Shown piece after piece: positions 12,470 to 30,482 of a stretch of DNA of 64,000 nucleotides. Position numbers and translations under genes: made by a program. Numbering within the stretch: the first letter of the stretch is position 1; each line of letters opens with the position of its first letter. The DNA lies in assembly GCF_003334815.1 (NCBI RefSeq), contig NZ_QOWO01000001.1, one strand, 5' to 3'. This DNA is from Escherichia coli. Its GTDB lineage: Bacteria > Pseudomonadota > Gammaproteobacteria > Enterobacterales > Enterobacteriaceae. The notes below the pieces were generated by a model that was not told where the DNA came from, ran no database searches, and worked only from the letters and a program-made list of their open reading frames with translations.

Positions 12470-13249
12470 ATGGAAATCAGCCTGTTGCAGGCATTTGCGT
12501 TGGGCATTATCGCCTTTATCGCTGGCCTGGATATGTTTAACGGCCTAACCCATATGCACCGCCCGGTGGTCCTCGGCCCGTTGGTCGGGCTGGTACTTGG
12601 CGATCTGCATACCGGAATTTTAACCGGCGGTACGCTGGAACTGGTGTGGATGGGGCTGGCCCCGCTGGCGGGCGCACAGCCGCCTAACGTGATTATCGGT
12701 ACTATCGTCGGCACGGCGTTTGCCATTACTACTGGCGTGAAACCCGATGTCGCAGTAGGTGTCGCCGTACCTTTCGCTGTCGCAGTACAGATGGGGATTA
12801 CCTTCCTGTTCTCGGTGATGTCCGGCGTGATGTCTCGCTGCGACCGGATGGCGGAGAACGCCGATACTCGCGGCATTGAACGCGTGAACTATCTGGCACT
12901 GCTGGCACTCGGCATTTTCTATTTTCTCTGCGCTTTCCTGCCTATCTACTTCGGCGCGGAACATGCAAAAACCATCATTGATGTCCTGCCGCAACGATTA
13001 ATCGACGGCCTCGGCGTCGCGGGCGGCATCATGCCAGCAATCGGTTTTGCCGTGCTGCTGAAAATCATGATGAAAAACGTCTACATCCCCTACTTCATCC
13101 TGGGCTTTGTTGCCGCCGCCTGGCTCAAGTTACCAGTGCTGGCTATTGCTGCCGCTGCGCTGGCGATGGCGCTGATCGACTTGCTGCGTAAATCTCCTGA
13201 ACCGACTCAACCTGCGGCACAGAAAGAGGAATTTGAAGATGGCATCTAA
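12470..13249 (+). CDS. agaW: PTS N-acetylgalactosamine-specific IIC component, full length
   Basis: 259-aa polytopic membrane ORF of the mannose-family IIC type. Confidence 0.85.
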   Translation: MEISLLQAFALGIIAFIAGLDMFNGLTHMHRPVVLGPLVGLVLGDLHTGILTGGTLELVWMGLAPLAGAQPPNVIIGTIVGTAFAITTGVKPDVAVGVAVPFAVAVQMGITFLFSVMSGVMSRCDRMAENADTRGIERVNYLALLALGIFYFLCAFLPIYFGAEHAKTIIDVLPQRLIDGLGVAGGIMPAIGFAVLLKIMMKNVYIPYFILGFVAAAWLKLPVLAIAAAALAMALIDLLRKSPEPTQPAAQKEEFEDGI

Positions 13250-14117
13250 TCAAACCACCCTGCCGAACGTCAGTGAAAACGAAGAAACATTGCTGACTGG
13301 CGTCAATGAAAACGTGTATGAAGATCAGAGCATTGGCGCGGAGCTGACGAAAAAAGATATCAACCGCGTCGCCTGGCGTTCCATGCTGTTACAAGCGTCT
13401 TTTAACTACGAACGTATGCAGGCTTCTGGCTGGTTGTACGGTCTGCTGCCTGCTCTGAAAAAGATCCACACTAATAAACGCGACCTGGCGCGCGCCATGA
13501 AGGGGCATATGGGTTTCTTCAATACCCATCCGTTTCTGGTGACGTTTGTTATCGGCATTATCCTTGCGATGGAGCGTTCTAAGCAGGACGTTAACAGTAT
13601 TCAGAGCACCAAAATTGCCGTCGGTGCGCCGCTTGGCGGGATTGGCGATGCAATGTTCTGGCTAACGCTACTGCCGATTTGTGGCGGGATTGGAGCCAGT
13701 CTGGCATTGCAAGGCTCCATTCTTGGCGCAGTCGTCTTTATTGTGCTGTTCAACGTGGTACACCTGGGGCTGCGTTTTGGTCTGGCGCATTATGCTTACC
13801 GCATGGGCGTGGCGGCGATTCCACTGATTAAAGCGAATACCAAAAAAGTCGGCCATGCTGCGTCTATCGTTGGGATGACGGTAATCGGTGCGCTGGTGGC
13901 AACCTATGTTCGTTTAAGCACCACGCTGGAAATCACGGCGGGCGACGCAGTGGTTAAGTTACAGGCTGATGTTATCGACAAACTGATGCCGGCCTTCTTA
14001 CCGTTGGTCTACACCCTGACCATGTTTTGGTTGGTACGCCGCGGCTGGAGTCCGCTGCGTCTGATTGCAGTTACCGTGGTTCTCGGCATCGTCGGTAAAT
14101 TCTGCCATTTCCTTTAA
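13233..14117 (+). CDS. agaE: PTS N-acetylgalactosamine-specific IID component
   Basis: 294-aa ORF of the mannose-family IID type, overlapping the agaW 3' end; exact start uncertain. Confidence 0.8.
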   Translation: MKMASNQTTLPNVSENEETLLTGVNENVYEDQSIGAELTKKDINRVAWRSMLLQASFNYERMQASGWLYGLLPALKKIHTNKRDLARAMKGHMGFFNTHPFLVTFVIGIILAMERSKQDVNSIQSTKIAVGAPLGGIGDAMFWLTLLPICGGIGASLALQGSILGAVVFIVLFNVVHLGLRFGLAHYAYRMGVAAIPLIKANTKKVGHAASIVGMTVIGALVATYVRLSTTLEITAGDAVVKLQADVIDKLMPAFLPLVYTLTMFWLVRRGWSPLRLIAVTVVLGIVGKFCHFL

Positions 14118-14134
14118 ATACAATGAGGTATTAG

Positions 14135-14569
14135 ATGTTAAGTATTATTTTGACAGGGCATGGCGGGTTTGCCAGCGGCATGGAAAAAGCAATGAAGCAA
14201 ATTCTCGGTGAGCAATCGCAGTTTATCGCCATCGATTTTCCGGAAACCTCAAGCACCGCGCTGCTTACATCGCAGCTTGAAGAGGCCATCGCCCAACTGG
14301 ATTGTGAAGACGGCATTGTTTTTCTGACGGATTTGCTGGGCGGCACGCCGTTTCGCGTAGCTTCAACGCTGGCGATGCAAAAACCGGGCTGTGAAGTGAT
14401 CACCGGCACCAATTTGCAACTGCTACTGGAGATGGTGCTGGAGCGCGAAGGGTTAAGCGGTGAAGAATTCCGTGTACAGGCGCTGGAGTGTGGACACCGA
14501 GGGCTGACCAGTCTGGTGGACGAGTTAGGCCGCTGCCATGAAGAATGTCCGGTCGAGGAAGGAATATGA
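14135..14569 (+). CDS. agaF: PTS IIA component (mannose family)
   Basis: 144-aa ORF with the IIA-Man fold signature LTGHGGFASG. Confidence 0.85.
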   Translation: MLSIILTGHGGFASGMEKAMKQILGEQSQFIAIDFPETSSTALLTSQLEEAIAQLDCEDGIVFLTDLLGGTPFRVASTLAMQKPGCEVITGTNLQLLLEMVLEREGLSGEEFRVQALECGHRGLTSLVDELGRCHEECPVEEGI

Positions 14570-15699
14570 CACACGTTCTGCGCGCCAGAAGGCTGCTGAC
14601 TGAAGAGGGATGGCTCGATGACCATCAGTTGCGTATTGCTGACGGTGTCATCGCAGCAATCGAACCGATTCCAGCGGGCGTGACTGAACGCGATGCGGAA
14701 CTGCTCTGCCCTGCTTACATCGACACCCATGTACACGGTGGTGCGGGCGTTGATGTAATGGATGACGCGCCGGATGTACTCGACAAGCTGGCAATGCACA
14801 AGGCACGCGAAGGTGTCGGCAGTTGGTTACCGACCACCGTAACCACGCCGCTTAATACCATTCATGCGGCGCTGAAACGTATTGCTCAACGTTGCCAACG
14901 CGGCGGACCTGGTGCGCAAGTGCTGGGGAGTTATCTCGAAGGACCGTACTTCACGCCGCAGAATAAAGGCGCGCATCCGCCGGAGTTGTTTCGCGAGCTT
15001 GAAATTGCCGAGCTGGATCAGTTGATTGCCGTTTCTCAGCACACCTTACGTGTGGTAGCGCTGGCACCGGAAAAAGAAGGGGCATTGCAGGCCATCCGCC
15101 ATCTTAAACAGCAAAACGTAAGGGTGATGCTGGGGCATAGCGCGGCGACCTGGCAACAAACCCGCGCCGCATTTGATGCTGGTGCCGACGGCCTGGTGCA
15201 TTGCTATAACGGGATGACAGGTTTACATCACCGCGAACCGGGAATGGTTGGCGCGGGATTAACGGACAAGCGCGCCTGGCTGGAACTGATAGCCGATGGT
15301 CATCATGTGCATCCGGCGGCAATGTCGCTGTGTTGTTGCTGTGCGAAAGAGAGAATCGTACTGATCACCGACGCGATGCAGGCAGCTGGGATGCCGGATG
15401 GTCGCTATACGTTATGTGGTGAAGAAGTGCAGATGCACGGTGGCGTTGTCCGTACCGCGTCTGGTGGGCTGGCGGGCAGTACGCTGTCTGTTGATGCGGC
15501 AGTGCGCAATATGGTCGAGTTGACGGGCGTAACGCCTGCGGAAGCCATCCATATGGCGTCGCTGCATCCGGCGCGAATGCTGGGTGTTGATGGTGTTCTG
15601 GGATCGCTTAAACCGGGCAAACGCGCCAGCGTCGTTGCGCTGGATAGCGGGCTACATGTGCAACAAATCTGGATTCAGGGTCAATTAGCTTCGTTTTGA
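14566..15699 (+). CDS. agaA: N-acetylgalactosamine-6-phosphate deacetylase, full length
   Basis: ORF 14545..15699; start taken at MTHVLRARRL (377 aa); NagA-like amidohydrolase. Confidence 0.85.
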   Translation: MTHVLRARRLLTEEGWLDDHQLRIADGVIAAIEPIPAGVTERDAELLCPAYIDTHVHGGAGVDVMDDAPDVLDKLAMHKAREGVGSWLPTTVTTPLNTIHAALKRIAQRCQRGGPGAQVLGSYLEGPYFTPQNKGAHPPELFRELEIAELDQLIAVSQHTLRVVALAPEKEGALQAIRHLKQQNVRVMLGHSAATWQQTRAAFDAGADGLVHCYNGMTGLHHREPGMVGAGLTDKRAWLELIADGHHVHPAAMSLCCCCAKERIVLITDAMQAAGMPDGRYTLCGEEVQMHGGVVRTASGGLAGSTLSVDAAVRNMVELTGVTPAEAIHMASLHPARMLGVDGVLGSLKPGKRASVVALDSGLHVQQIWIQGQLASF

Positions 15700-15774
15700 T
15701 AGTTTGCTCCTTTATTGGGCCTTCACTTCCCCCGTAAGGCCTTTCTTTTTCTTTCGTTTTGATCTGTGCAGCGG

Positions 15775-15862
15775 TGTCGGATGCGACGCTAACGCGTCTT
15801 ATCCGACCTACAGTTGGTGACCGCAAGGCCGGATAAAGCGTTTGCGCCGCATCCAGCAATCC
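15775..15862. repeat. REP-type extragenic palindromic elements
   Basis: gcgacgctaacgcgtcttatccgacctac and ggccggataaagcgtttgcgccgcatcc motifs. Confidence 0.6.
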
Positions 15863-16049
15863 CTTTTGCTTCCTTTATCTTTTCTTTCAACGATCACAAA
15901 TTTCGTTTTATTTCTTTTTTCTCCATTGAACTTTCAGTTTCTTTTCTATAGATTTTAATCAACGAAAGACATCACCAAGTGAAATGAAACGAAAGGCAAG
16001 TGAAAGCGACAACGCCCGACGTCAAGTTCATCAGACTAAGGATTGAGTT
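15863..16049 (+). promoter_or_regulatory. agaS promoter region with TTTCGTTT / AAACGAAAG motif repeats (candidate AgaR operator)
   Basis: tttcgttttatttc, aacgaaagac and gaaatgaaacgaaagg upstream of agaS. Confidence 0.5.
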
Positions 16050-17204
16050 ATGCCAGAAAATTACACCCCTGCTGCCGCCGCAACCGGTACATGGACTGAA
16101 GAAGAGATCCGCCATCAGCCTCGCGCATGGATCCGTTCACTCACCAACATCGACGCGCTACGTTCCGCGCTCAATAACTTCCTTGAACCGTTACTGCGCA
16201 AAGAGAATCTGCGGATCATCCTGACCGGAGCCGGAACGTCGGCATTTATCGGTGACATCATCGCGCCGTGGCTCGCCAGCCATACCGGTAAAAACTTCAG
16301 CGCCGTACCGACCACCGATCTGGTCACCAATCCGATGGACTACCTGAACCCAGCTCATCCGCTGCTGTTGATCTCCTTCGGTCGATCCGGCAACAGCCCG
16401 GAAAGCGTCGCAGCCGTGGAACTGGCAAATCAATTTGTACCGGAATGCTATCACCTGCCGATCACCTGCAACGAAGCGGGCGCTCTTTACCAAAACGCGA
16501 TCAACAGCGATAACGCGTTTGCCCTGCTGATGCCCGCAGAAACGCACGATCGCGGCTTTGCGATGACCAGCAGCATTACCACCATGATGGCCAGCTGCCT
16601 CGCGGTTTTCGCACCTGAGACGATCAACAGCCAAACCTTCCGCGACGTGGCGGATCGTTGCCAGGCGATCCTGACCTCACTGGGCGATTTCAGCGAAGGT
16701 GTGTTTGGTTACGCACCGTGGAAACGGATCGTTTATCTCGGTAGCGGTGGCTTACAGGGCGCAGCACGCGAGTCGGCGCTGAAAGTGCTGGAACTGACGG
16801 CGGGTAAACTGGCGGCCTTTTATGATTCTCCAACCGGATTCCGTCATGGACCAAAATCGCTGGTCGATGACGAAACGCTGGTGGTGGTATTTGTCTCCAG
16901 CCACCCTTACACCCGTCAGTATGATCTTGATCTGCTGGCTGAACTTCGCCGTGACAACCAGGCAATGCGTGTAATCGCCATCGCCGCGGAAAGCAGCGAC
17001 ATCGTCGCTGCCGGTCCACATATCATCCTGCCACCGTCACGTCACTTTATCGACGTTGAGCAGGCATTTTGCTTCCTGATGTACGCCCAGACGTTTGCAC
17101 TGATGCAGTCGCTGCACATGGGCAATACGCCGGATACCCCATCAGCCAGTGGCACCGTTAACCGCGTGGTGCAAGGCGTAATCATTCATCCGTGGCAGGC
17201 ATAA
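16050..17204 (+). CDS. agaS: Sugar isomerase (SIS-domain) AgaS, putative galactosamine-6-phosphate deaminase/isomerase
   Basis: 384-aa ORF with SIS domains. Confidence 0.9.
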   Translation: MPENYTPAAAATGTWTEEEIRHQPRAWIRSLTNIDALRSALNNFLEPLLRKENLRIILTGAGTSAFIGDIIAPWLASHTGKNFSAVPTTDLVTNPMDYLNPAHPLLLISFGRSGNSPESVAAVELANQFVPECYHLPITCNEAGALYQNAINSDNAFALLMPAETHDRGFAMTSSITTMMASCLAVFAPETINSQTFRDVADRCQAILTSLGDFSEGVFGYAPWKRIVYLGSGGLQGAARESALKVLELTAGKLAAFYDSPTGFRHGPKSLVDDETLVVVFVSSHPYTRQYDLDLLAELRRDNQAMRVIAIAAESSDIVAAGPHIILPPSRHFIDVEQAFCFLMYAQTFALMQSLHMGNTPDTPSASGTVNRVVQGVIIHPWQA

Positions 17205-18077
<873 letters not shown>

Positions 18078-18243
18078 TCATTAGTTTTTTATGATTTATC
18101 CCAATGTACTTCCCGATTAATATCGGGGAGTGCCTTAATGGAAAAGGAGATAACTAAACCTTAATAAATACATCACTACAATATCGCAACAATAATATAT
18201 TTAAAAAAATTATATTATTCAACTTTATGGTGAGGATTACACA

Positions 18244-18720
18244 ATGACCAGTCCAAATATTCTCTTAACCCGTATTGATAACCGTCTGGTTCACGGTCAG
18301 GTTGGCGTGACCTGGACATCCACCATCGGTGCAAATCTGCTGGTAGTCGTGGATGATGTTGTCGCTAACGATGATATTCAACAGAAATTAATGGGTATTA
18401 CCGCGGAAACCTACGGCTTTGGCATTCGTTTCTTTACTATCGAAAAAACCATTAACGTCATCGGCAAAGCTGCACCACATCAGAAGATCTTCCTGATTTG
18501 CCGTACGCCACAAACGGTACGTAAATTGGTAGAAGGTGGTATTGACCTGAAAGATGTCAACGTCGGCAATATGCATTTCTCGGAAGGGAAAAAGCAAATC
18601 AGCAGTAAAGTTTATGTCGATGACCAGGATCTCACGGACTTACGTTTTATTAAACAACGTGGCGTGAATGTTTTCATTCAGGACGTCCCTGGCGATCAAA
18701 AAGAACAAATCCCTGACTAA
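18244..18720 (+). CDS. agaB: PTS galactosamine-specific IIB component
   Basis: 158-aa ORF paralogous to agaV (RIDNRLVHGQVG). Confidence 0.9.
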   Translation: MTSPNILLTRIDNRLVHGQVGVTWTSTIGANLLVVVDDVVANDDIQQKLMGITAETYGFGIRFFTIEKTINVIGKAAPHQKIFLICRTPQTVRKLVEGGIDLKDVNVGNMHFSEGKKQISSKVYVDDQDLTDLRFIKQRGVNVFIQDVPGDQKEQIPD

Positions 18721-18758
18721 ATCTAAAATCGCCTTAATATTGGTTTGAGGTAATAAAA

Positions 18759-19562
18759 ATGCATGAAATAACCCTACTTCAGGGATTATCCCTGGCGGCG
18801 TTAGTTTTTGTTCTGGGGATTGATTTTTGGCTGGAAGCCTTATTTTTATTCCGCCCGATAATCGTTTGTACCCTAACTGGCGCTATTCTCGGTGATATTC
18901 AGACTGGCTTAATTACCGGTGGTCTGACAGAGTTGGCTTTCGCCGGATTAACCCCTGCAGGTGGTGTTCAGCCGCCCAACCCGATTATGGCGGGTCTGAT
19001 GACCACCGTCATTGCATGGTCTACGGGCGTTGATGCCAAAACAGCAATTGGTCTTGGCCTGCCGTTTAGTTTGTTAATGCAGTACGTCATTCTGTTCTTC
19101 TATTCCGCTTTCTCATTATTTATGACCAATGCCGATAAATGCGCGAAAGAGGCGGATACGGCAGCGTTTTCCCGGCTTAACTGGACAACGATGCTCATCG
19201 TCGCTTCAGCGTATGCGGTGATTGCTTTCCTCTGTACTTACCTGGCACAGGGGGCGATGCAGGCGCTGGTGAAAGCGATGCCCGCCTGGCTGACCCACGG
19301 CTTTGAAGTGGCTGGCGGTATTCTGCCTGCCGTTGGTTTTGGCTTGCTGCTGCGCGTAATGTTCAAAGCGCAATATATCCCTTACCTGATCGCCGGTTTC
19401 CTGTTTGTTTGCTACATCCAGGTCAGCAACCTGTTGCCGGTTGCCGTACTGGGCGCAGGCTTTGCGGTGTATGAGTTTTTCAATGCGAAATCCCGGCAGC
19501 AAGCGCAACCGCAGCCCGTTGCCAGTAAAAATGAAGAAGAGGACTACAGCAATGGGATCTGA
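18759..19562 (+). CDS. agaC: PTS galactosamine-specific IIC component
   Basis: 267-aa membrane ORF paralogous to agaW. Confidence 0.9.
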   Translation: MHEITLLQGLSLAALVFVLGIDFWLEALFLFRPIIVCTLTGAILGDIQTGLITGGLTELAFAGLTPAGGVQPPNPIMAGLMTTVIAWSTGVDAKTAIGLGLPFSLLMQYVILFFYSAFSLFMTNADKCAKEADTAAFSRLNWTTMLIVASAYAVIAFLCTYLAQGAMQALVKAMPAWLTHGFEVAGGILPAVGFGLLLRVMFKAQYIPYLIAGFLFVCYIQVSNLLPVAVLGAGFAVYEFFNAKSRQQAQPQPVASKNEEEDYSNGI

Positions 19563-20343
19563 AATCAGTAAAAAAGATATCACCCGTCTGGGCTTTCGTT
19601 CGTCGCTGCTGCAAGCGAGCTTTAACTACGAAAGGATGCAGGCGGGCGGTTTTACCTGGGCGATGTTGCCGATCCTGAAAAAGATTTATAAGGACGACAA
19701 ACCGGGCTTAAGCGCGGCGATGAAAGATAACCTCGAATTTATTAATACCCACCCGAATCTGGTCGGATTCCTGATGGGGTTATTAATTTCGATGGAAGAA
19801 AAAGGAGAAAACCGCGACACCATTAAAGGCCTCAAAGTGGCACTGTTTGGCCCAATCGCCGGGATTGGCGATGCGATTTTCTGGTTTACTTTGTTGCCGA
19901 TTATGGCGGGAATTTGCTCATCATTTGCCAGCCAGGGAAACCTGCTGGGGCCGATTCTATTTTTCGCCGTTTACCTGCTTATCTTTTTCCTGCGCGTCGG
20001 CTGGACCCACGTCGGTTATTCAGTCGGCGTGAAGGCGATCGATAAAGTGCGAGAGAACTCGCAGATGATTGCCCGTTCGGCAACCATCCTCGGGATCACG
20101 GTAATCGGCGGGCTGATCGCTTCGTATGTGCATATTAACGTGGTGACATCGTTTGCCATCGACAATACCCACAGCGTTGCGCTGCAGCAGGATTTCTTCG
20201 ATAAAGTCTTCCCGAACATTTTACCGATGGCCTACACCCTGCTGATGTATTACTTCCTGCGGGTGAAAAAAGCGCATCCGGTGCTGTTAATCGGCGTGAC
20301 TTTTGTGCTCTCTATTGTTTGTTCCGCATTCGGCATTTTGTAA
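19552..20343 (+). CDS. agaD: PTS galactosamine-specific IID component
   Basis: ORF 19405..20343; start placed at MGSEISKKDITRLGF (263 aa), overlapping the agaC stop. Confidence 0.85.
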   Translation: MGSEISKKDITRLGFRSSLLQASFNYERMQAGGFTWAMLPILKKIYKDDKPGLSAAMKDNLEFINTHPNLVGFLMGLLISMEEKGENRDTIKGLKVALFGPIAGIGDAIFWFTLLPIMAGICSSFASQGNLLGPILFFAVYLLIFFLRVGWTHVGYSVGVKAIDKVRENSQMIARSATILGITVIGGLIASYVHINVVTSFAIDNTHSVALQQDFFDKVFPNILPMAYTLLMYYFLRVKKAHPVLLIGVTFVLSIVCSAFGIL

Positions 20344-21099
20344 ATGGAACGAGGCACTGCGTCTGGTGGTGCCTCTTTACTTAAGGAATTTCATCCTGTG
20401 CAAACCCTTCAGCAAGTTGAAAACTATACGGCGTTAAGTGAACGTGCCAGCGAATATTTATTGGCCGTGATCCGTAGCAAACCGAATGCCGTGATTTGCC
20501 TGGCGACCGGAGCCACGCCATTACTGACGTATCATTATCTGGTAGAAAAAATCCACCAGCAGCAGGTTGATGTCAGCCAGCTCACCTTCGTGAAGCTCGA
20601 CGAATGGGTGGATCTGCCATTAACGATGCCAGGCACCTGCGAAACTTTCCTGCAACAGCATATCGTGCAGCCGCTGGGGCTACGTGAAGACCAGCTCATC
20701 AGCTTTCGCTCCGAAGAGATAAATGAGACAGAGTGCGAACGGGTAACGAACCTGATTGCGCGCAAAGGCGGTCTGGATTTATGCGTTCTCGGATTGGGGA
20801 AAAACGGTCATCTTGGGCTGAACGAACCGGGAGAAAGCCTGCAACCGGCCTGCCATATCAGTCAACTTGATGCCAGAACACAGCAACATGAGATGTTAAA
20901 AACCGCGGGTCGCCCCGTGACTCGTGGGATCACCTTAGGCCTGAAGGATATTCTCAATGCCCGCGAAGTTTTGTTACTGGTGACTGGCGAAGGAAAGCAG
21001 GATGCGACAGATCGTTTTCTCACGGATAAAGTCTCTACCGCTATCCCGGCTTCATTTTTATGGCTGCACAGTAACTTTATTTGTTTAATTAACACCTAA
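20344..21099 (+). CDS. agaI: Galactosamine-6-phosphate isomerase/deaminase (NagB-like)
   Basis: 251-aa ORF starting directly after the agaD stop. Confidence 0.85.
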   Translation: MERGTASGGASLLKEFHPVQTLQQVENYTALSERASEYLLAVIRSKPNAVICLATGATPLLTYHYLVEKIHQQQVDVSQLTFVKLDEWVDLPLTMPGTCETFLQQHIVQPLGLREDQLISFRSEEINETECERVTNLIARKGGLDLCVLGLGKNGHLGLNEPGESLQPACHISQLDARTQQHEMLKTAGRPVTRGITLGLKDILNAREVLLLVTGEGKQDATDRFLTDKVSTAIPASFLWLHSNFICLINT

Positions 21100-21499
21100 C
21101 CAGATGAAAAATTTGCTCAAAATGTTTAAATTAACTTATGTAACAGTCACGCATTATATTAAATAACATTTGACTGGGTTGAACATAACGCCGATAGCAA
21201 AAGGAGTTATGTTCAACAATTTAATTTTAGATATACATATAACTTGTTCTATTAATAAATCACCTCGTATTCTGACTCGCCCCCTGGCGCAGCAAAGTCA
21301 GGCATTTATACTCTTTTGAATACATAGAAAATTGATATCAATATAATGAAAATATCAAATATTTGCATATAAATATAATCTTAAAGTTCAGTCTATTTAA
21401 TGTTCAATGAAATATTTCTGCCTGTATAATCTTTAAAGATGTTGAACATATATTCACATTAAATATGATTATGTACTTGTTACAAGGATAAGGTTATAT
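21100..21499 (+). promoter_or_regulatory. Strongly AT-rich upstream region of the yra fimbrial operon
   Basis: 400 bp of AT-rich non-coding DNA with A/T tracts upstream of yraH; typical of silenced chaperone-usher fimbrial promoters. Confidence 0.45.
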
Positions 21500-22084
21500 A
21501 TGAATAAAGTTACAAAAACAGCTATTGCGGGCTTACTTGCGCTTTTCGCAGGTAATGCCGCTGCAACCGATGGTGAAATAGTTTTTGATGGCGAGATTTT
21601 AAAATCCGCTTGTGAAATCAATGACTCTGATAAGAAAATTGAAGTTGCTCTTGGTCACTATAATGCCGAACAGTTTCGTAATATTGGCGAGCGTAGCCCA
21701 AAAATTCCATTCACTATTCCTTTAGTTAACTGCCCAATGACTGGGTGGGAGCACGATAACGGCAACGTTGAAGCGTCTTTCCGTCTATGGCTGGAAACGC
21801 GAGATAATGGCACCGTCCCTAACTTCCCTAATCTGGCAAAAGTAGGCTCTTTTGCTGGCATAGCGGCAACAGGTGTGGGTATCCGTATTGACGATGCGGA
21901 AAGCGGAAACATTATGCCACTGAATGCTATGGGCAATGATAACACGGTTTATCAGATCCCGGCGGAATCCAATGGTATTGTCAATGTTGACCTCATCGCT
22001 TACTACGTATCAACCGTAGTTCCATCAGAAATCACCCCAGGGGAAGCAGACGCTATCGTTAACGTAACGCTGGATTACCGTTAA
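21500..22084 (+). CDS. yraH: Fimbrial subunit-like protein
   Basis: 194-aa ORF with signal peptide and fimbrial subunit C-terminus. Confidence 0.85.
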   Translation: MNKVTKTAIAGLLALFAGNAAATDGEIVFDGEILKSACEINDSDKKIEVALGHYNAEQFRNIGERSPKIPFTIPLVNCPMTGWEHDNGNVEASFRLWLETRDNGTVPNFPNLAKVGSFAGIAATGVGIRIDDAESGNIMPLNAMGNDNTVYQIPAESNGIVNVDLIAYYVSTVVPSEITPGEADAIVNVTLDYR

Positions 22085-22090
22085 TACGTT

Positions 22091-22127
22091 AGGGCGTTAT
22101 CTGACCTGTCAGATAACGCCCTTTTCC
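22091..22127 (+). terminator. Hairpin after yraH (possible intra-operon attenuator/terminator)
   Basis: Inverted repeat ggcgttatctgacc / gtcagataacgcc followed by cttttcc. Confidence 0.5.
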
Positions 22128-22163
22128 TTCCTCTTTCTCGTTGTATCAGGTTGAAAAATAACT

Positions 22164-22859
22164 ATGTCAAAACGAACATTCGCGGTGATATTAACCTTGT
22201 TGTGTAGCTTCTGTATTGGCCAGGCGCTTGCAGGAGGAATCGTTTTACAGCGAACGCGAGTGATCTATGATGCCAGCCGCAAAGAGGCTGCGTTACCTGT
22301 CGCAAACAAAGGCGCAGAAACGCCTTATTTACTGCAATCATGGGTAGATAATATAGATGGTAAAAGCCGTGCCCCATTTATTATAACCCCACCGCTATTT
22401 CGTCTTGAGGCTGGCGATGACTCATCACTGCGAATTATTAAAACAGCTGATAACCTGCCTGAAAATAAAGAGTCGCTGTTCTACATTAATGTTCGTGCCA
22501 TTCCAGCAAAGAAAAAATCAGATGATGTTAATGCTAACGAGTTGACGCTGGTATTTAAAACACGGATCAAAATGTTTTATCGCCCCGCACACCTGAAGGG
22601 ACGGGTAAACGATGCGTGGAAATCACTGGAATTTAAACGTAGTGACCATTCACTCAATATATATAACCCAACTGAATATTACGTCGTATTTGCCGGACTG
22701 GCAGTCGATAAAACCGATCTCACAAGCAAAATTGAATATATCGCGCCCGGAGAACATAAACAGTTACCACTTCCTGCATCTGGCGGAAAGAACGTGAAAT
22801 GGGCTGCGATCAATGATTATGGCGGCAGTTCCGGGACAGAAACTCGTCCACTGCAATAA
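22164..22859 (+). CDS. yraI: Periplasmic fimbrial chaperone (PapD-like)
   Basis: 231-aa ORF with signal peptide and chaperone motifs. Confidence 0.85.
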
Positions 22860-22887
22860 AAAATATAAAAACACAGGTCATCAGGGA

Positions 22888-25413
22888 ATGCCACAACGAC
22901 ACCACCAGGGACATAAACGCACACCGAAACAGTTGGCGCTCATCATCAAACGTTGTTTGCCGATGGTGCTCACTGGCAGCGGCATGCTTTGCACTACCGC
23001 TAACGCCGAAGAGTATTATTTCGACCCCATTATGCTGGAAACCACAAAAAGTGGTATGCAAACAACCGATCTGTCGCGTTTTTCAAAAAAATATGCACAA
23101 CTACCAGGAACTTATCAGGTTGATATCTGGCTGAATAAAAAGAAGGTTTCACAGAAAAAAATTACATTTACCGCCAATGCAGAGCAACTTCTGCAGCCAC
23201 AGTTTACGGTAGAACAACTACGTGAGCTGGGTATTAAGGTGGATGAAATCCCGGCGCTGGCTGAAAAAGATGACGATAGCGTGATCAACTCGCTTGAACA
23301 AATCATTCCCGGTACAGCTGCTGAATTTGATTTCAATCATCAGCAACTTAATTTGAGCATTCCCCAAATTGCACTGTACCGTGATGCAAGAGGTTACGTC
23401 TCCCCTTCTCGTTGGGACGATGGTATACCAACGCTGTTTACCAACTACTCGTTTACAGGTTCTGATAACCGTTACCGCCAGGGCAATCGTAGCCAACGAC
23501 AGTACCTGAATATGCAAAATGGTGCTAATTTTGGCCCCTGGCGATTACGCAACTATTCCACATGGACACGCAACGATCAGACATCAAGCTGGAATACCAT
23601 CAGTAGTTATTTACAACGTGATATCAAGGCGTTGAAGTCTCAGTTGCTTCTGGGAGAAAGCGCCACCAGCGGCAGTATTTTTTCCAGCTACACCTTTACT
23701 GGCGTGCAACTCGCTTCCGACGATAATATGTTGCCAAACAGCCAGCGCGGATTTGCCCCAACGGTACGCGGTATCGCAAACAGTAGTGCAATCGTGACTA
23801 TCAGGCAAAATGGTTATGTGATCTATCAAAGCAACGTGTCAGCGGGTGCCTTTGAAATTAACGATCTCTACCCCTCTTCCAACAGCGGCGATTTAGAAGT
23901 CACGATTGAAGAAAGTGACGGTACACAACGTCGCTTTATCCAGCCTTATTCTTCATTACCCATGATGCAGCGACCTGGGCATCTAAAGTATAGCGCGACC
24001 GCTGGACGCTATCGCGCTGATGCAAACAGTGATAGCAAGGAACCCGAATTTGCTGAAGCCACGGCAATATATGGTTTGAATAATACTTTTACGCTGTATG
24101 GCGGCCTGCTCGGTTCTGAAGATTATTATGCGCTGGGGATCGGTATCGGCGGCACACTTGGCGCACTGGGCGCACTGGGCGCGTTGTCGATGGATATCAA
24201 CAGAGCTGACACCCAATTCGATAACCAGCACTCTTTTCATGGCTATCAATGGCGTACGCAGTACATCAAAGATATCCCGGAAACCAACACCAATATCGCT
24301 GTCAGCTACTATCGCTATACCAACGATGGCTATTTTAGTTTTAATGAAGCCAATACCCGCAATTGGGACTATAACAGTCGCCAAAAAAGTGAAATTCAAT
24401 TCAACATCAGCCAGACAATATTTGATGGGGTAAGTCTGTATGCCTCCGGTTCGCAGCAAGACTATTGGGGCAATAACGATAAAAACAGGAATATCTCTGT
24501 TGGGGTTTCCGGCCAGCAATGGGGAGTTGGTTACAGCCTGAATTATCAATACAGCCGCTACACTGATCAAAATAATGACCGCGCACTCTCTTTGAATCTC
24601 AGTATTCCGTTAGAACGCTGGTTACCGCGTAGCCGGGTTTCCTATCAGATGACCAGCCAGAAAGATCGCCCAACCCAACATGAAATGCGTCTTGATGGCT
24701 CACTGCTGGATGATGGTCGCCTGAGCTATAGCCTGGAACAAAGTCTGGATGACGATAACAACCATAACAGTAGCCTGAACGCCAGTTACCGTTCACCTTA
24801 TGGCACCTTCAGTGCCGGATACAGCTACGGTAATGACAGCAGCCAATACAATTACGGCGTTACCGGCGGCGTGGTTATCCATCCTCATGGCGTGACGCTC
24901 TCGCAATATCTGGGCAACGCTTTTGCGCTTATCGATGCTAACGGAGCATCTGGCGTGAGGATACAAAACTATCCGGGGATTGCTACCGATCCTTTTGGCT
25001 ATGCAGTGGTTCCTTATCTCACAACTTATCAGGAAAACCGTCTCTCGGTAGATACTACGCAGCTGCCCGATAACGTCGATCTTGAACAAACAACACAGTT
25101 TGTGGTGCCCAACAGAGGTGCAATGGTAGCGGCGCGTTTCAACGCCAATATCGGTTATCGCGTACTTGTTACAGTCAGCGATCGCAACGGTAAACCGTTG
25201 CCCTTTGGCGCTCTTGCCAGCAACGATGATACAGGGCAACAAAGTATCGTCGATGAGGGCGGCATACTATATCTCTCTGGGATATCGAGTAAATCACAAA
25301 GCTGGACTGTACGCTGGGGAAATCAGGCAGATCAACAATGTCAGTTTGCTTTCAGTACACCGGATTCAGAACCTACAACCTCTGTATTACAAGGCACAGC
25401 GCAGTGCCATTAA
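22888..25413 (+). CDS. yraJ: Outer membrane fimbrial usher
   Basis: ORF 22813..25413; start placed at the first internal ATG (MPQRHH...); exact start uncertain. Confidence 0.8.
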   Translation: MPQRHHQGHKRTPKQLALIIKRCLPMVLTGSGMLCTTANAEEYYFDPIMLETTKSGMQTTDLSRFSKKYAQLPGTYQVDIWLNKKKVSQKKITFTANAEQLLQPQFTVEQLRELGIKVDEIPALAEKDDDSVINSLEQIIPGTAAEFDFNHQQLNLSIPQIALYRDARGYVSPSRWDDGIPTLFTNYSFTGSDNRYRQGNRSQRQYLNMQNGANFGPWRLRNYSTWTRNDQTSSWNTISSYLQRDIKALKSQLLLGESATSGSIFSSYTFTGVQLASDDNMLPNSQRGFAPTVRGIANSSAIVTIRQNGYVIYQSNVSAGAFEINDLYPSSNSGDLEVTIEESDGTQRRFIQPYSSLPMMQRPGHLKYSATAGRYRADANSDSKEPEFAEATAIYGLNNTFTLYGGLLGSEDYYALGIGIGGTLGALGALGALSMDINRADTQFDNQHSFHGYQWRTQYIKDIPETNTNIAVSYYRYTNDGYFSFNEANTRNWDYNSRQKSEIQFNISQTIFDGVSLYASGSQQDYWGNNDKNRNISVGVSGQQWGVGYSLNYQYSRYTDQNNDRALSLNLSIPLERWLPRSRVSYQMTSQKDRPTQHEMRLDGSLLDDGRLSYSLEQSLDDDNNHNSSLNASYRSPYGTFSAGYSYGNDSSQYNYGVTGGVVIHPHGVTLSQYLGNAFALIDANGASGVRIQNYPGIATDPFGYAVVPYLTTYQENRLSVDTTQLPDNVDLEQTTQFVVPNRGAMVAARFNANIGYRVLVTVSDRNGKPLPFGALASNDDTGQQSIVDEGGILYLSGISSKSQSWTVRWGNQADQQCQFAFSTPDSEPTTSVLQGTAQCH

Positions 25414-25423
25414 GGATAAAAAA

Positions 25424-26515
25424 ATGAAAAGAGCGCCTCTTATAACAGGTCTTTTGTTGATATCCACATCCTGCGCTTATGCCTCCTCAGGAGGGTGTGG
25501 AGCCGACAGCACTAGCGGTGCGACAAATTACAGCAGTGTGGTTGATGATGTTACGGTGAACCAGACAGATAACGTGACAGGACGGGAGTTTACCTCTGCA
25601 ACGCTAAGTAGCACTAACTGGCAATACGCCTGTTCCTGCTCTGCGGGTAAGGCAGTTAAACTTGTCTATATGGTCAGCCCCGTACTTACCACCACTGGAC
25701 ATCAGACAGGATATTACAAACTCAATGACAGCCTGGATATTAAAACCACATTACAGGCAAACGACATTCCAGGACTCACAACCGACCAGGTTGTCTCTGT
25801 TAACACCCGATTCACACAGATAAAAAACAACACGGTATATTCTGCTGCAACCCAAACGGGTGTTTGCCAGGGTGATACGTCTCGTTATGGACCCGTTAAT
25901 ATTGGTGCGAACACCACCTTTACCCTGTATGTCACCAAGCCATTTCTCGGCTCGATGACCATTCCGAAAACGGATATTGCCGTCATTAAAGGCGCGTGGG
26001 TCGATGGAATGGGAAGCCCGTCTACAGGTGACTTCCATGATTTAGTCAAGTTATCGATTCAGGGAAATCTCACCGCCCCACAGTCGTGCAAAATTAATCA
26101 GGGCGATGTTATTAAGGTTAATTTTGGATTCATCAATGGTCAGAAGTTTACCACCCGCAATGCCATGCCAGACGGTTTTACTCCAGTAGACTTTGATATC
26201 ACTTATGACTGTGGTGATACTTCAAAGATTAAAAACTCGTTGCAAATGCGCATCGACGGTACAACTGGGGTAGTAGACCAGTACAACCTGGTCGCCAGGC
26301 GAAGAAGTTCAGACAATGTGCCCGATGTCGGTATTCGTATTGAAAATCTCGGCGGCGGAGTTGCAAATATTCCTTTTCAGAACGGTATCCTTCCCGTTGA
26401 TCCTTCCGGGCATGGCACCGTCAATATGCGCGCCTGGCCAGTTAATCTGGTCGGTGGTGAGCTGGAAACAGGAAAATTTCAGGGCACAGCCACCATTACC
26501 GTCATCGTGCGGTAA
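25424..26515 (+). CDS. yraK: Fimbrial adhesin-like protein
   Basis: ORF 25166..26515; start at MKRAPLITGLLLISTSCAYA (signal peptide), 363 aa. Confidence 0.8.
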   Translation: MKRAPLITGLLLISTSCAYASSGGCGADSTSGATNYSSVVDDVTVNQTDNVTGREFTSATLSSTNWQYACSCSAGKAVKLVYMVSPVLTTTGHQTGYYKLNDSLDIKTTLQANDIPGLTTDQVVSVNTRFTQIKNNTVYSAATQTGVCQGDTSRYGPVNIGANTTFTLYVTKPFLGSMTIPKTDIAVIKGAWVDGMGSPSTGDFHDLVKLSIQGNLTAPQSCKINQGDVIKVNFGFINGQKFTTRNAMPDGFTPVDFDITYDCGDTSKIKNSLQMRIDGTTGVVDQYNLVARRRSSDNVPDVGIRIENLGGGVANIPFQNGILPVDPSGHGTVNMRAWPVNLVGGELETGKFQGTATITVIVR

Positions 26516-26557
26516 AAGAAGACGTTGCGTTTTGATTAACGCAACGCTTCGGCACTG

Positions 26558-27418
26558 TTACCCCTGCTGCTCCAGCGCATACTTATACAGCGCATTTTTC
26601 TTCACGCCGTGAATTTCTGCGGCCAGCGCCGCCGCTTTTTTCAGCGGCAGTTCTGCCTGTAGCAGCGCCAGCGTGCGCAGGGCATCGGCGGGTAAGTCTT
26701 CTTCCTGTGCTTTATGACCTTCGACAATCAGCACCATTTCGCCTTTGCGACGGTTTTCATCTTCCTTTACCCACGCCAGCAGCTCGCCAACGGGCGCGCC
26801 GTGAATGGTTTCCCAGGTTTTGGTCAGCTCACGCGCCAGAACCACGTAGCGGGATTCGCCTAATACCGCAACGATATCTTCCAGGCTATCTAACAGACGG
26901 TGGGTAGATTCATAAAAAATCAGCGTGCGCGGCTCCGCTTCAATGGCTTTTAGCGCATCACGGCGGCCTTTTGATTTGGCAGGTAAAAAGCCTTCGTAAC
27001 AGAAACGGTCAGAGGGTAAACCCGCTGCGCTTAACGCAGTGATAGCAGCACACGGCCCGGGTAGCGGCACCACGCGGATCCCCGCTTCACGGCAGGTACG
27101 CACCAGATGGTAGCCAGGATCGTTAATTAGCGGCGTTCCGGCATCGGAAACCAGCGCAATGTTTTGCCCCTCTTGCAGCTTCGCCAGCAGCGTTTCAGCT
27201 TTTTGTTGTTCGTTATGGTCGTGCAGCGCAAACAACCGGGCATTAATCCCAAAATGTTGCAGCAATAAACCGGTGTGACGAGTATCCTCGGCGGCAATCA
27301 GATCAACGGCCTGTAATACCTCTAACGCACGCTGGGTGATATCCGCCAGATTGCCGATTGGCGTCGGTACAATGTAAAGCTGGCCCTGAGAATTATCCGC
27401 CGATTGGTGTTGTTTCAT
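26558..27418 (-). CDS. rsmI: 16S rRNA (cytidine1402-2'-O)-methyltransferase
   Basis: 286-aa ORF of the tetrapyrrole-methylase-like fold. Confidence 0.9.
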
Positions 27419-27482
27419 TGTGTCGTCCGTATTGCCGATTTAATATTGAGCATTGCGTAAAAAAAATATCACTGGATACATT

Positions 27483-29519
27483 ATGGTACCCTCAACATTT
27501 TCTCGTTTGAAAGCCGCGCGTTGTCTGCCTGTTGTTCTGGCAGCCCTGATTTTCGCCGGTTGTGGCACCCATACTCCCGATCAGTCCACTGCTTATATGC
27601 AGGGCACGGCGCAGGCTGATTCTGCCTTTTATCTTCAGCAGATGCAGCAAAGCTCTGATGATACCAGGATCAACTGGCAATTACTCGCCATTCGTGCACT
27701 GGTGAAAGAAGGTAAAACCGGGCAGGCGGTTGAGTTGTTTAACCAACTACCGCAAGAACTGAACGATGCTCAGCGTCGCGAGAAAACACTGCTGGCGGTA
27801 GAGATTAAACTGGCGCAGAAAGATTTTGCTGGCGCGCAAAACTTGCTGGCGAAAATCACACCTGCCGATTTAGAACAAAACCAGCAAGCGCGTTACTGGC
27901 AGGCAAAAATCGATGCCAGCCAGGGGCGTCCTTCCATTGATTTACTGCGCGCGTTAATTGCTCAGGAACCGCTGCTTGGCGCGAAAGAAAAACAGCAGAA
28001 TATTGATGCCACCTGGCAGGCGCTCTCCTCCATGACTCAGGAACAGGCGAATACGCTGGTGATCAACGCCGACGAAAATATTCTGCAAGGCTGGCTGGAT
28101 CTGCAGCGCGTCTGGTTTGATAACCGTAACGATCCCGACATGATGAAAGCCGGGATCGCCGACTGGCAGAAACGTTATCCGAACAATCCGGGCGCGAAAA
28201 TGCTGCCAACGCAGTTGGTTAACGTAAAAGCGTTTAAACCAGCCTCGACCAACAAAATCGCCCTGCTGTTGCCACTGAATGGCCAGGCAGCGGTATTTGG
28301 TCGCACTATTCAGCAAGGCTTTGAAGCGGCGAAAAATATCGGCACTCAGCCAGTGGCAGCTCAGGTAGCTGCCGCACCTGCCGCAGACGTAGCTGAACAA
28401 CCTCAGCCGCAAACCGTGGATGGCGTTGCCAGCCCGGCACAAGCCTCGGTTAGCGATCTGACCGGTGAACAGCCTGCAGCCCAGCCGGTGCCTGTAAGCG
28501 CCCCGGCGACAAGCACCGCAGCGGTAAGCGCACCCGCAAATCCATCCGCAGAGCTGAAAATCTACGATACCTCATCACAACCACTTAGCCAGATCTTAAG
28601 CCAGGTTCAGCAGGATGGCGCGAGTATTGTGGTCGGTCCGTTGCTGAAAAATAACGTTGAAGAGTTGCTGAAGAGCAACACTCCGCTGAACGTACTGGCA
28701 CTGAACCAGCCGGAGAATATCGAAAATCGCGTCAATATTTGTTACTTCGCGCTTTCACCGGAAGACGAAGCGCGCGATGCAGCGCGTCATATTCGTGACC
28801 AGGGTAAACAAGCGCCGCTGGTGCTGATCCCACGCAGTTCATTGGGCGATCGCGTAGCCAATGCGTTTGCGCAAGAGTGGCAGAAACTGGGCGGCGGCAC
28901 CGTTCTGCAACAAAAATTTGGTTCCACCAGCGAATTACGCGCGGGTGTTAACGGCGGTTCTGGTATTGCTTTAACGGGTAGCCCGATTACTCTCAGAGCG
29001 ACAACCGACTCCGGCATGACGACCAACAATCCAACGCTGCAAACCACGCCAACCGATGACCAGTTCACCAATAATGGCGGTCGTGTCGATGCGGTGTACA
29101 TTGTGGCAACGCCGGGTGAAATCGCTTTTATCAAACCGATGATCGCCATGCGTAACGGTAGCCAGAGCGGTGCAACGCTGTACGCCAGCTCCCGCAGTGC
29201 GCAAGGGACCGCTGGCCCGGATTTCCGACTGGAGATGGAAGGCTTGCAGTACAGCGAAATCCCGATGCTGGCAGGCGGTAATCTACCGTTAATGCAGCAG
29301 GCACTCAGCGCGGTGAATAACGATTATTCACTGGCTCGCATGTATGCGATGGGCGTCGATGCCTGGTCGCTGGCAAATCATTTCTCACAAATGCGCCAGG
29401 TTCAGGGTTTTGAAATCAACGGTAATACCGGAAGCCTGACGGCTAACCCGGATTGCGTGATTAACAGGAACTTATCATGGCTACAGTACCAACAAGGTCA
29501 GGTAGTCCCCGTCAGTTAA
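27483..29519 (+). CDS. lpoA: Outer membrane lipoprotein activator of PBP1A
   Basis: ORF 27453..29519; start at [10 protein letters not shown] (678 aa); lipobox LAALIFAGC; TPR-like N-domain and Ala/Pro/Gln-rich linker. Confidence 0.9.
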
Positions 29520-29872
29520 CCACCAAACAGACCGGCGATGCGTGGGAAGCACAAGCGCGTCGCTGGCTGGAAGGCAAAGGACTGCGGTTTATCGCCGCTA
29601 ACGTGAACGAGCGTGGCGGCGAGATCGATCTGATAATGCGTGAAGGCCGGACCACCATTTTTGTCGAGGTACGCTATCGCCGCTCTGCGCTTTATGGCGG
29701 CGCGGCAGCCAGTGTGACCCGCAGCAAACAACACAAATTATTACAGACTGCCCGCTTGTGGCTCGCGCGTCATAATGGGAGTTTTGATACTGTGGATTGC
29801 CGGTTCGATGTGGTAGCCTTCACCGGGAATGAGGTTGAGTGGATTAAGGATGCCTTTAATGACCACTCATAA
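29477..29872 (+). CDS. yraN: UPF0102 family protein YraN (predicted endonuclease fold)
   Basis: 131-aa ORF overlapping the lpoA 3' end by 43 nt. Confidence 0.85.
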
Positions 29873-29891
29873 TTAAGGTTTAAGGATTAGC

Positions 29892-30482
29892 GTGCAAGAA
29901 AGAATTAAAGCTTGCTTCACTGAAAGCATTCAAACTCAAATTGCGGCGGCAGAGGCGCTTCCGGATGCCATCTCCCGTGCAGCCATGACGCTGGTTCAGT
30001 CTCTGCTCAATGGCAACAAAATCCTCTGTTGTGGTAATGGAACTTCCGCTGCCAATGCACAGCATTTTGCTGCCAGCATGATCAACCGTTTCGAAACGGA
30101 GCGGCCCAGCTTACCTGCCATTGCACTAAATACTGATAATGTTGTCTTAACGGCGATTGCCAACGATCGCTTACATGATGAAGTGTATGCAAAACAGGTG
30201 CGGGCGCTGGGTCATGCGGGAGATGTATTGTTAGCCATTTCCACCCGTGGCAACAGCCGCGATATTGTTAAAGCAGTTGAAGCCGCCGTTACGCGTGATA
30301 TGACCATTGTGGCATTGACCGGCTATGACGGCGGCGAACTTGCAGGTTTGTTAGGGCCACAGGATGTGGAGATCCGCATTCCTTCGCATCGTAGTGCTCG
30401 CATTCAGGAAATGCATATGCTGACGGTAAATTGCCTGTGCGATCTGATCGATAACACGCTTTTCCCTCACCAGGATGATTAA
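29892..30482 (+). CDS. diaA: DnaA initiator-associating protein (SIS domain)
   Basis: 196-aa ORF with apparent GTG start. Confidence 0.9.

Follow-up and report, generated by a model that had tools for sequence, protein, structure and literature searches.

The agaI–yraH spacer of Escherichia coli as a probable H-NS-silenced regulatory region of the cryptic yraHIJK fimbrial operon

Why does a complete fimbrial operon stay silent in laboratory cultures, and does the DNA in front of it account for this? The question is raised by the agaI–yraH intergenic region of Escherichia coli, which we analysed within a stretch of 64 kb (referred to as the window; all positions are those of the window unless stated otherwise). 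The gene order at this locus is agaS-kbaY-agaBCDI, yraHIJK, rsmI (convergent) and lpoA. The original prediction described about 400 bp of AT-rich DNA with phased A/T tracts ahead of an intact subunit–chaperone–usher–adhesin operon and likened the arrangement to nucleoid-protein-silenced cryptic fimbrial loci.

Composition and architecture of the spacer

The region under study is the following.

21100..21499, + strand: agaI–yraH spacer, the 400 bp between the last base of the agaI stop codon (21099) and the yraH ATG (21500)

Alignment of positions 15141-30083 with E. coli MG1655 (NC_000913.3) revealed 99.9% identity, the differences being five substitutions and an in-frame insertion of 9 bp. 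The 400-bp spacer is the same as in MG1655 at every base and, therefore, data obtained with K-12 are directly applicable to it. Further upstream, 2.3 kb of the window (12846-15140) are missing from MG1655, where K-12 has agaW and agaA pseudogenes; the source strain thus probably carries intact agaW-agaA and is not K-12.

The GC content of the spacer is 27.25%, compared with 50.8% for the whole 64-kb window. A GC content as low as this is reached by only 0.1% of all 400-bp windows, and the minimum (26.25%) starts at 21119, which bears out the predicted AT-rich stretch of about 400 bp in front of the operon. TpA steps occur at 12.8 per 100 bp in the spacer versus 4.5 for the window, and TATAAT-like hexamers at 20 versus 2.9 per 400 bp. 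Elsewhere in the 64 kb, GC values below 33% were found in one other block only, at 64-1459 (yhaB/yhaC). This second low-GC block, with a minimum of 27% GC, is another published H-NS-bound promoter island (PMC3661553 table). Tandem-like repeats with a period of ~113 bp and offset self-matches of 94-96% identity are located nearby, at 1615-2007 between yhaC and rnpB.

Within the spacer, GC amounts to 26% at 21100-21260 and to 20.6% in the promoter-proximal part at 21306-21499, separated by a GC-rich patch. The features recognized in both halves are listed here.

21178..21217, + strand: 12-bp perfect hairpin, an inverted repeat GTTGAACATAAC ... GTTATGTTCAAC followed by AAUUUAAUUUUAG; dG -18.9 kcal/mol, z -5.1
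21261..21305, + strand: GC-rich patch of 45 bp (60% GC) with a weak stem-loop, dividing the spacer into two AT-rich halves
21332..21360, + strand: distal sigma-70-like promoter from Shimada et al. (PMC3946193), predicted as TTGATA-17-TCAAAT
21442..21469, + strand: candidate proximal sigma-70-like promoter TTGAAC-16-TATGAT, 9/12 matches in a consensus scan
21484..21493, + strand: putative Shine-Dalgarno region AAGGATAAGG, 6 nt upstream of the yraH ATG, read from the sequence

The left half (21100-21305) would form the end of the aga transcript, and the hairpin at 21178-21217 is probably the terminator of the agaS-kbaY-agaBCDI transcript. None of 200 shuffled sequences folded as well. Six E. coli haplotypes were aligned to follow variation within the species; the stem was unchanged in all of them and the sole change fell into the loop. 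The patch at 21261-21305 was also flagged as terminator-like and was discarded as such, its fold being no better than that of shuffled sequences (z -1.3).

For the right half (21306-21499), we propose from the sequence that it holds the yraH promoter or promoters together with the ribosome-binding site, and either of the two promoter-like sites may drive yraH. At the distal site, both hexamers are changed in three of the six haplotypes, to TTCATA and to TAAAAT or TAGAAT. The candidate proximal promoter would yield a leader of ~24 nt, for which no structure was predicted (z +0.34). It is located within a stretch of 78 bp (21421-21498) that is invariant in the six haplotypes, an observation that is not statistically remarkable by our estimate (p about 0.2). 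In a consensus scan of the 1.4-kb region, sigma-70-like matches were no more numerous than in shuffled sequences.

In contrast to the AT content, the predicted phasing of A/T tracts was not borne out. Just seven runs of at least four A or T bases are present in the spacer, the longest comprising five bases. Fourier analysis of AA/TT, AAA/TTT and WWW for periods of 10-11.5 bp, applied to the spacer as a whole and to its two halves separately, showed that 11-68% of dinucleotide-preserving shuffles had an equal or higher helical periodicity. Curvature, which had been named as a check of the prediction, was calculated as a wedge-model trajectory using Bolshoy/Trifonov parameters, for which a synthetic phased-A6 control gave 83 degrees. 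A single bend of 48 degrees was predicted at ~21113, at the agaI end; it corresponds to the 99.8th percentile of the window and was reached by 6% of the shuffles. The mean predicted curvature of the spacer was unexceptional (p = 0.24 against shuffles), and the last 70 promoter-proximal bp showed low values of 2-13 degrees. The reported high-affinity H-NS 10-mer TCGATAAATT, which is frequent at H-NS sites and not obligatory, had no match with up to two mismatches in 21100-21499. With neither a special geometry nor a match to this 10-mer, any affinity of H-NS for the spacer must come from its bulk AT and TpA content.

An intact operon on a strain-variable segment

The spacer is followed by four genes and two further hairpins, all of which belong to a segment that varies between strains.

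21069..26561, no strand assigned: strain-variable yra segment of 5,493 bp (spacer, yraHIJK and terminators); homology to the yra-less strain L002 ends at 21068 and resumes at 26562
21500..22084, + strand: yraH, major fimbrial subunit, 194 aa, with full-length matches to fimbrial subunit models
22091..22122, + strand: hairpin with a 14-bp stem and a U-rich tail directly 3' of yraH; dG -23.5 kcal/mol, z -7.8
22164..22859, + strand: yraI, 231 aa, a periplasmic chaperone matched over its entire length by the LpfB and FimC chaperone models
22888..25413, + strand: yraJ, outer-membrane usher, 841 aa, with PapC_N (44-190), Usher (206-751) and PapC_C (760-825)
25424..26515, + strand: yraK, two-domain tip adhesin, 363 aa, with a Fimbrial domain at 211-362 and an LpfD-like match over residues 3-360
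26523..26546, no strand assigned: hairpin in the interval between yraK and rsmI, which are convergent; dG -20.9 kcal/mol, z -4.1

All four genes are uninterrupted, so that the predicted complete and intact subunit–chaperone–usher–adhesin operon is indeed present. This includes the domain check that had been suggested for yraJ and yraK: the three usher domains are each matched end to end, and YraK has the two-domain, LpfD-like organization. The hairpin at 22091-22122 likely acts as an attenuating terminator that separates the subunit gene from the chaperone gene, the usual position of attenuators in fimbrial operons, and the one at 26523-26546 probably terminates transcription from both sides at the segment's right end. 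While the lengths of the other operon genes equal those of MG1655, YraJ is 3 aa longer, because the 9-bp tandem unit GGCGCACTG is present in one additional in-frame copy at 24160-24168. This version of the repeat (at least 99% identity) was found in 2 of the 3466 genomes matching 24090-24240. The NCBIfam scores of the yra proteins are all under the equivalog cut-offs, indicating that yra is not lpf itself but a separate system of the gamma-1 type, with lpf and fim as relatives. The operon has been classed as gamma-1 in another published paper as well.

In yra-less E. coli, 99 bp between agaI and rsmI take the place of the 5,493-bp segment. The spacer occurs in 3,376 of 5,426 complete E. coli genomes (62%), with 95-100% identity and invariably at the same site; this occurrence of spacer and operon as one 5.5-kb segment in 62% of the complete genomes is new in this analysis. 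Three published predictors class the region as associated with foreign genes (PMC3661553). Its GC content (45.1%) is lower than that of agaI, rsmI and lpoA (50-55%). The yra coding DNA, with 44-48% GC, is only mildly AT-biased, and a long H-NS filament over the operon is therefore not predicted from composition.

At the left boundary, the DNA of the last ten agaI codons (21069-21099 versus 6170-6212 of L002) is nearly unalignable between yra-plus and yra-less strains. The C-terminal peptides of AgaI are still similar, LHSNFICLINT in yra-plus and LHNYFTCMIDEMCRR in yra-less strains, which indicates that these 31 nt are a very diverged allele and not unrelated DNA. In the O157:H7 strain ECP17-1298 (L006, positions 1-231), the annotation gives agaI as a pseudogene interrupted by an internal stop. 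Insertions were also seen within the spacer. Strain L9 carries a simple IS1 insertion at 21217-21226, just past the hairpin, and strains XH2172 and EC45 have IS1 together with a deletion of 21440-22990 and thus lack the candidate proximal promoter, both yraH and yraI, and the 5' part of yraJ.

For the distribution beyond E. coli, GTDB species representatives were scanned with exact 8-residue YraH peptides. Two loci only were confirmed, an operon of Ewingella americana (44% identity) and a contaminant-like contig. The latter, a 2.2-kb contig labelled Xenorhabdus szentirmaii (NZ_NIBV01000010.1), encodes a YraH C-terminus 100% identical to that of E. coli and is most likely E. coli contamination in a Xenorhabdus assembly. 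The spacer upstream of the Ewingella operon comprises ~500 bp, is AT-rich as well (27-43% GC) and cannot be aligned with the E. coli spacer. Directly upstream of that operon (L005, positions 4263-6361) are two divergently oriented open reading frames of 246 and 453 aa, which may form a two-component pair.

H-NS occupancy and alternative explanations

For the agaI–yraH sequence itself, published K-12 data are available. The spacer is one of the 78 promoter islands of K-12 described by Panyukov and Ozoline (2013), entry 3285165_325 (PMC3661553).

~21214..21538, + strand: promoter island, U00096.2 3285165-3285489 (PMC3661553); positions converted by us on the assumption of a 1975-bp offset, with an uncertainty of about 2 bp

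By their authors' definition, promoter islands have dense predicted start points, are bound by RNA polymerase and are transcriptionally almost silent (PMC3661553). The region is listed by these authors according to their PlatProm criterion of extreme start-point density over at least 300 bp, for which the count of TATAAT-like hexamers given above served as our proxy. In Table 1 of the same study, agaI/yraH is marked 'K', which denotes H-NS binding in the data of Kahramanoglou et al. (MG1655) and of Oshima et al. (W3110), and not 'A', since no H-NS site was called here in the ChIP-chip data of Grainger et al. (PMC3661553). The upstream regions of sfmA, elfA, yadN, yehD, ybgD, yfcV and fimA are promoter islands, too, and every one of them carries an H-NS mark (PMC3661553). 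As the same table covers so many fimbrial upstream regions with this mark, H-NS binding is a class property of K-12 fimbrial operons. Furthermore, agaI is among 42 core genes that show an H-NS ChIP signal solely in strains having an adjacent insertion (Higashi 2016, PMC4720273). The insertion next to agaI is yraH-yraK, which K-12 and SE11 possess and SE15 lacks (PMC4720273 S6 Table).

In genomic SELEX, the RpoD holoenzyme bound the agaI-yraH spacer in vitro, and the entry carries an HNS flag (Shimada 2014, PMC3946193). As far as the summaries of Korea 2010 report, yra is poorly expressed under laboratory conditions, several chaperone–usher operons are under H-NS control, and six of the seven operons studied were functional when expressed; these summaries are silent on whether yra was one of the six. 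Published conditions with altered expression are the overproduction of BolA, which induces yraH, and membership of yraK (2.7-fold up) in the RcsB-modulated set. Higher yraHIJ expression has been published for HUS-associated STEC.

Taken together, occupancy by H-NS, which the original prediction had named as its test, is present in published ChIP data for the identical K-12 sequence (PMC3661553, PMC4720273), Grainger et al. being the one data set without a call. Together with RNA polymerase binding, poor laboratory expression and the strain-variable nature of the DNA, it supports the predicted nucleoid-protein-silenced cryptic fimbrial locus. The spacer is in this respect already known; it is a documented H-NS-bound promoter island and probably an ordinary target of xenogeneic silencing. 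Our reading, to which we assign a probability of roughly three in four, is that these 400 bp serve as regulatory DNA for the cryptic yraHIJK operon and that H-NS causes the silence of yra by xenogeneic silencing. Owing to its extreme AT and TpA content, the spacer would be a substrate of H-NS, probably accompanied by StpA and Hha. H-NS would polymerise over the spacer and spill onto the end of agaI, while RNA polymerase would bind many promoter-like sequences and give little productive transcript. The intact operon would thus stay silent under laboratory conditions until it receives an anti-silencing input. Against this reading stand the missing call in the data of Grainger et al., the lack of a TCGATAAATT match, the unremarkable curvature and phasing, and the only mild AT bias of the coding DNA.

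Some of these points also fit a passive spacer, in which DNA of foreign origin that has drifted towards AT holds no more than a terminator and a weak promoter. In this case the operon would be silent for want of its activator, and H-NS binding would be a by-product of composition that leaves regulation unaffected. The spacer indeed has neither a high-affinity H-NS motif nor special curvature or phasing, and its variability is similar to that of the neighbouring coding DNA, with 23 variable columns out of 400 in the six haplotypes compared with ~12 of 231 at the agaI 3' end and ~8 of 221 at the yraH 5' end (flanks counted by eye). However, the RNA polymerase holoenzyme binds the spacer in vitro without any added factor (PMC3946193), yet expression in vivo is poor as far as it has been summarized. 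Occupancy by H-NS was seen in independent ChIP studies (PMC3661553, PMC4720273), and deletion of hns raised the output of at least four tested promoter islands, which were not named (PMC3661553). We therefore regard a merely passive role as unlikely.

Instead of H-NS, or along with it, a dedicated repressor or anti-silencer might act on the spacer. Such a regulator is suggested by the 8-mer TTGAACAT, of which four copies (at 21179, 21209, 21400 and 21442) are located in these 400 bp, out of seven in the entire 64 kb. They form two inverted pairs. The first pair makes up the arms of the hairpin at 21178-21217, and the second is situated in the right half.

21400..21449, no strand assigned: second inverted pair ATGTTCAA-N34-TTGAACAT, whose right-hand copy shares bases with the -35-like hexamer of the proximal site

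Four-copy 8-mers with at least two G/C bases were obtained in 0 of 1000 shuffles, and the threefold occurrence of GTTGAACATA gave p about 0.014. All four copies of TTGAACAT are unchanged in the six E. coli haplotypes, an invariance with little power at such low divergence. On the other hand, the excess of the motif amounts merely to p about 0.04 when all 8-mers are counted in the shuffles, and two of the copies simply form the arms of a hairpin whose RNA-type structure is more readily accounted for by termination of the aga transcript. TTGAACAT was not found upstream of the homologous operon of Ewingella americana, and no regulator gene was found in the segment 21069-26561. To our knowledge, there is no E. 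coli factor with a TTGAACAT consensus. The motif may be the remnant of a duplication or a binding site. A dedicated regulator acting through these copies is improbable, and judging from the sequence it is still more doubtful that all four invariant copies would be operators of a sequence-specific factor that gates or counter-silences yra. If this were true, these operators would give the cryptic operon a dedicated input beyond generic coating with H-NS.

An overlooked gene for a small protein or a small RNA within the spacer is very improbable. It contains short open reading frames of 20 aa (21104-21166) and 49 aa (21170-21319), and its left half folds better than shuffled sequences (z -3.2). 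The 20-aa frame, however, is shifted by a 1-bp deletion in two of the six haplotypes, and the 49-aa frame starts with TTG and reads through the hairpin at 21178-21217. The folding signal was traced to this one hairpin, and the candidate 5' leader is unstructured. An Rfam search of 20000-23000 with E-values up to 1 gave no relevant match, since the sole hit, to a viral element within yraI, was spurious.

Phase variation is common in fimbrial operons. A promoter on a fimS-like invertible element or a pap-like gate controlled by Dam methylation can essentially be excluded for yra: an 11-bp perfect inverted repeat (GTAACTTTATT / AATAAAGTTAC, at 21071-21081 and 21503-21513) does flank the spacer, but such a match is expected by chance at ~0.2 in 511 AT-rich bases (rough estimate), an inverted-junction query had hits of at least 80% coverage in 0 of 5426 complete genomes, no GATC site is present in 21100-21499, homopolymer runs do not exceed five bases, and neither a recombinase nor a PapB/PapI-like gene was found in the segment. 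Lacking GATC sites and inverted junctions, the locus shows no evident phase switch.

Silencing by H-NS thus remains the reading that we favour, and it makes the yra spacer a textbook-style case of how E. coli would silence an intact, laterally variable adhesin operon. Beyond annotation this matters little. With 400 bp and no local regulator, the spacer could nevertheless serve as a clean small model for silencing and counter-silencing by H-NS.

Comparison with known systems

The closest counterparts are the K-12 promoter islands, among which the spacer itself is an entry. Like these, it is AT-rich, dense in promoter-like sites, bound by RNA polymerase, listed as H-NS-bound and linked to predicted foreign genes (PMC3661553). 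There is no substantial difference, and only the data of Grainger et al. are without an H-NS call.

The pef operon of Salmonella offers a parallel from another host. As far as the source describes it, H-NS represses the AT-rich promoter of pef, which is silent in vitro (PMC6844306), and a similar repression is proposed here for yra; pef belongs to a different operon family.

The fimS element of type 1 fimbriae is likewise AT-rich and H-NS-listed, fimE/fimA is also a promoter island, and the yra spacer is flanked by a short inverted repeat. In contrast to fimS, yra has no recombinase gene nearby, and its inverted configuration does not occur among the 5426 genomes.

By sequence, the nearest relative is lpf of E. 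coli O157:H7 and Salmonella, since the LpfB, LpfC and LpfD models give the highest or nearly the highest scores for YraI, YraJ and YraK. The scores, however, are below the equivalog cut-offs, and yra is a paralogous gamma-1 system. Reportedly, H-NS silences lpf1 and Ler lifts this silencing; we know of no Ler-like anti-silencer for yra. According to one paper, yra and the related UshC system are mutually exclusive.

Finally, the cryptic sfm, ycb/elf, yad, yeh, ybg and yfc operons of K-12 resemble yra in that, as far as the sources summarize them, each is an intact, poorly expressed operon behind an AT-rich, H-NS-listed spacer. Unlike this set, yra resides on a segment that is missing from 38% of the complete E. 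coli genomes.
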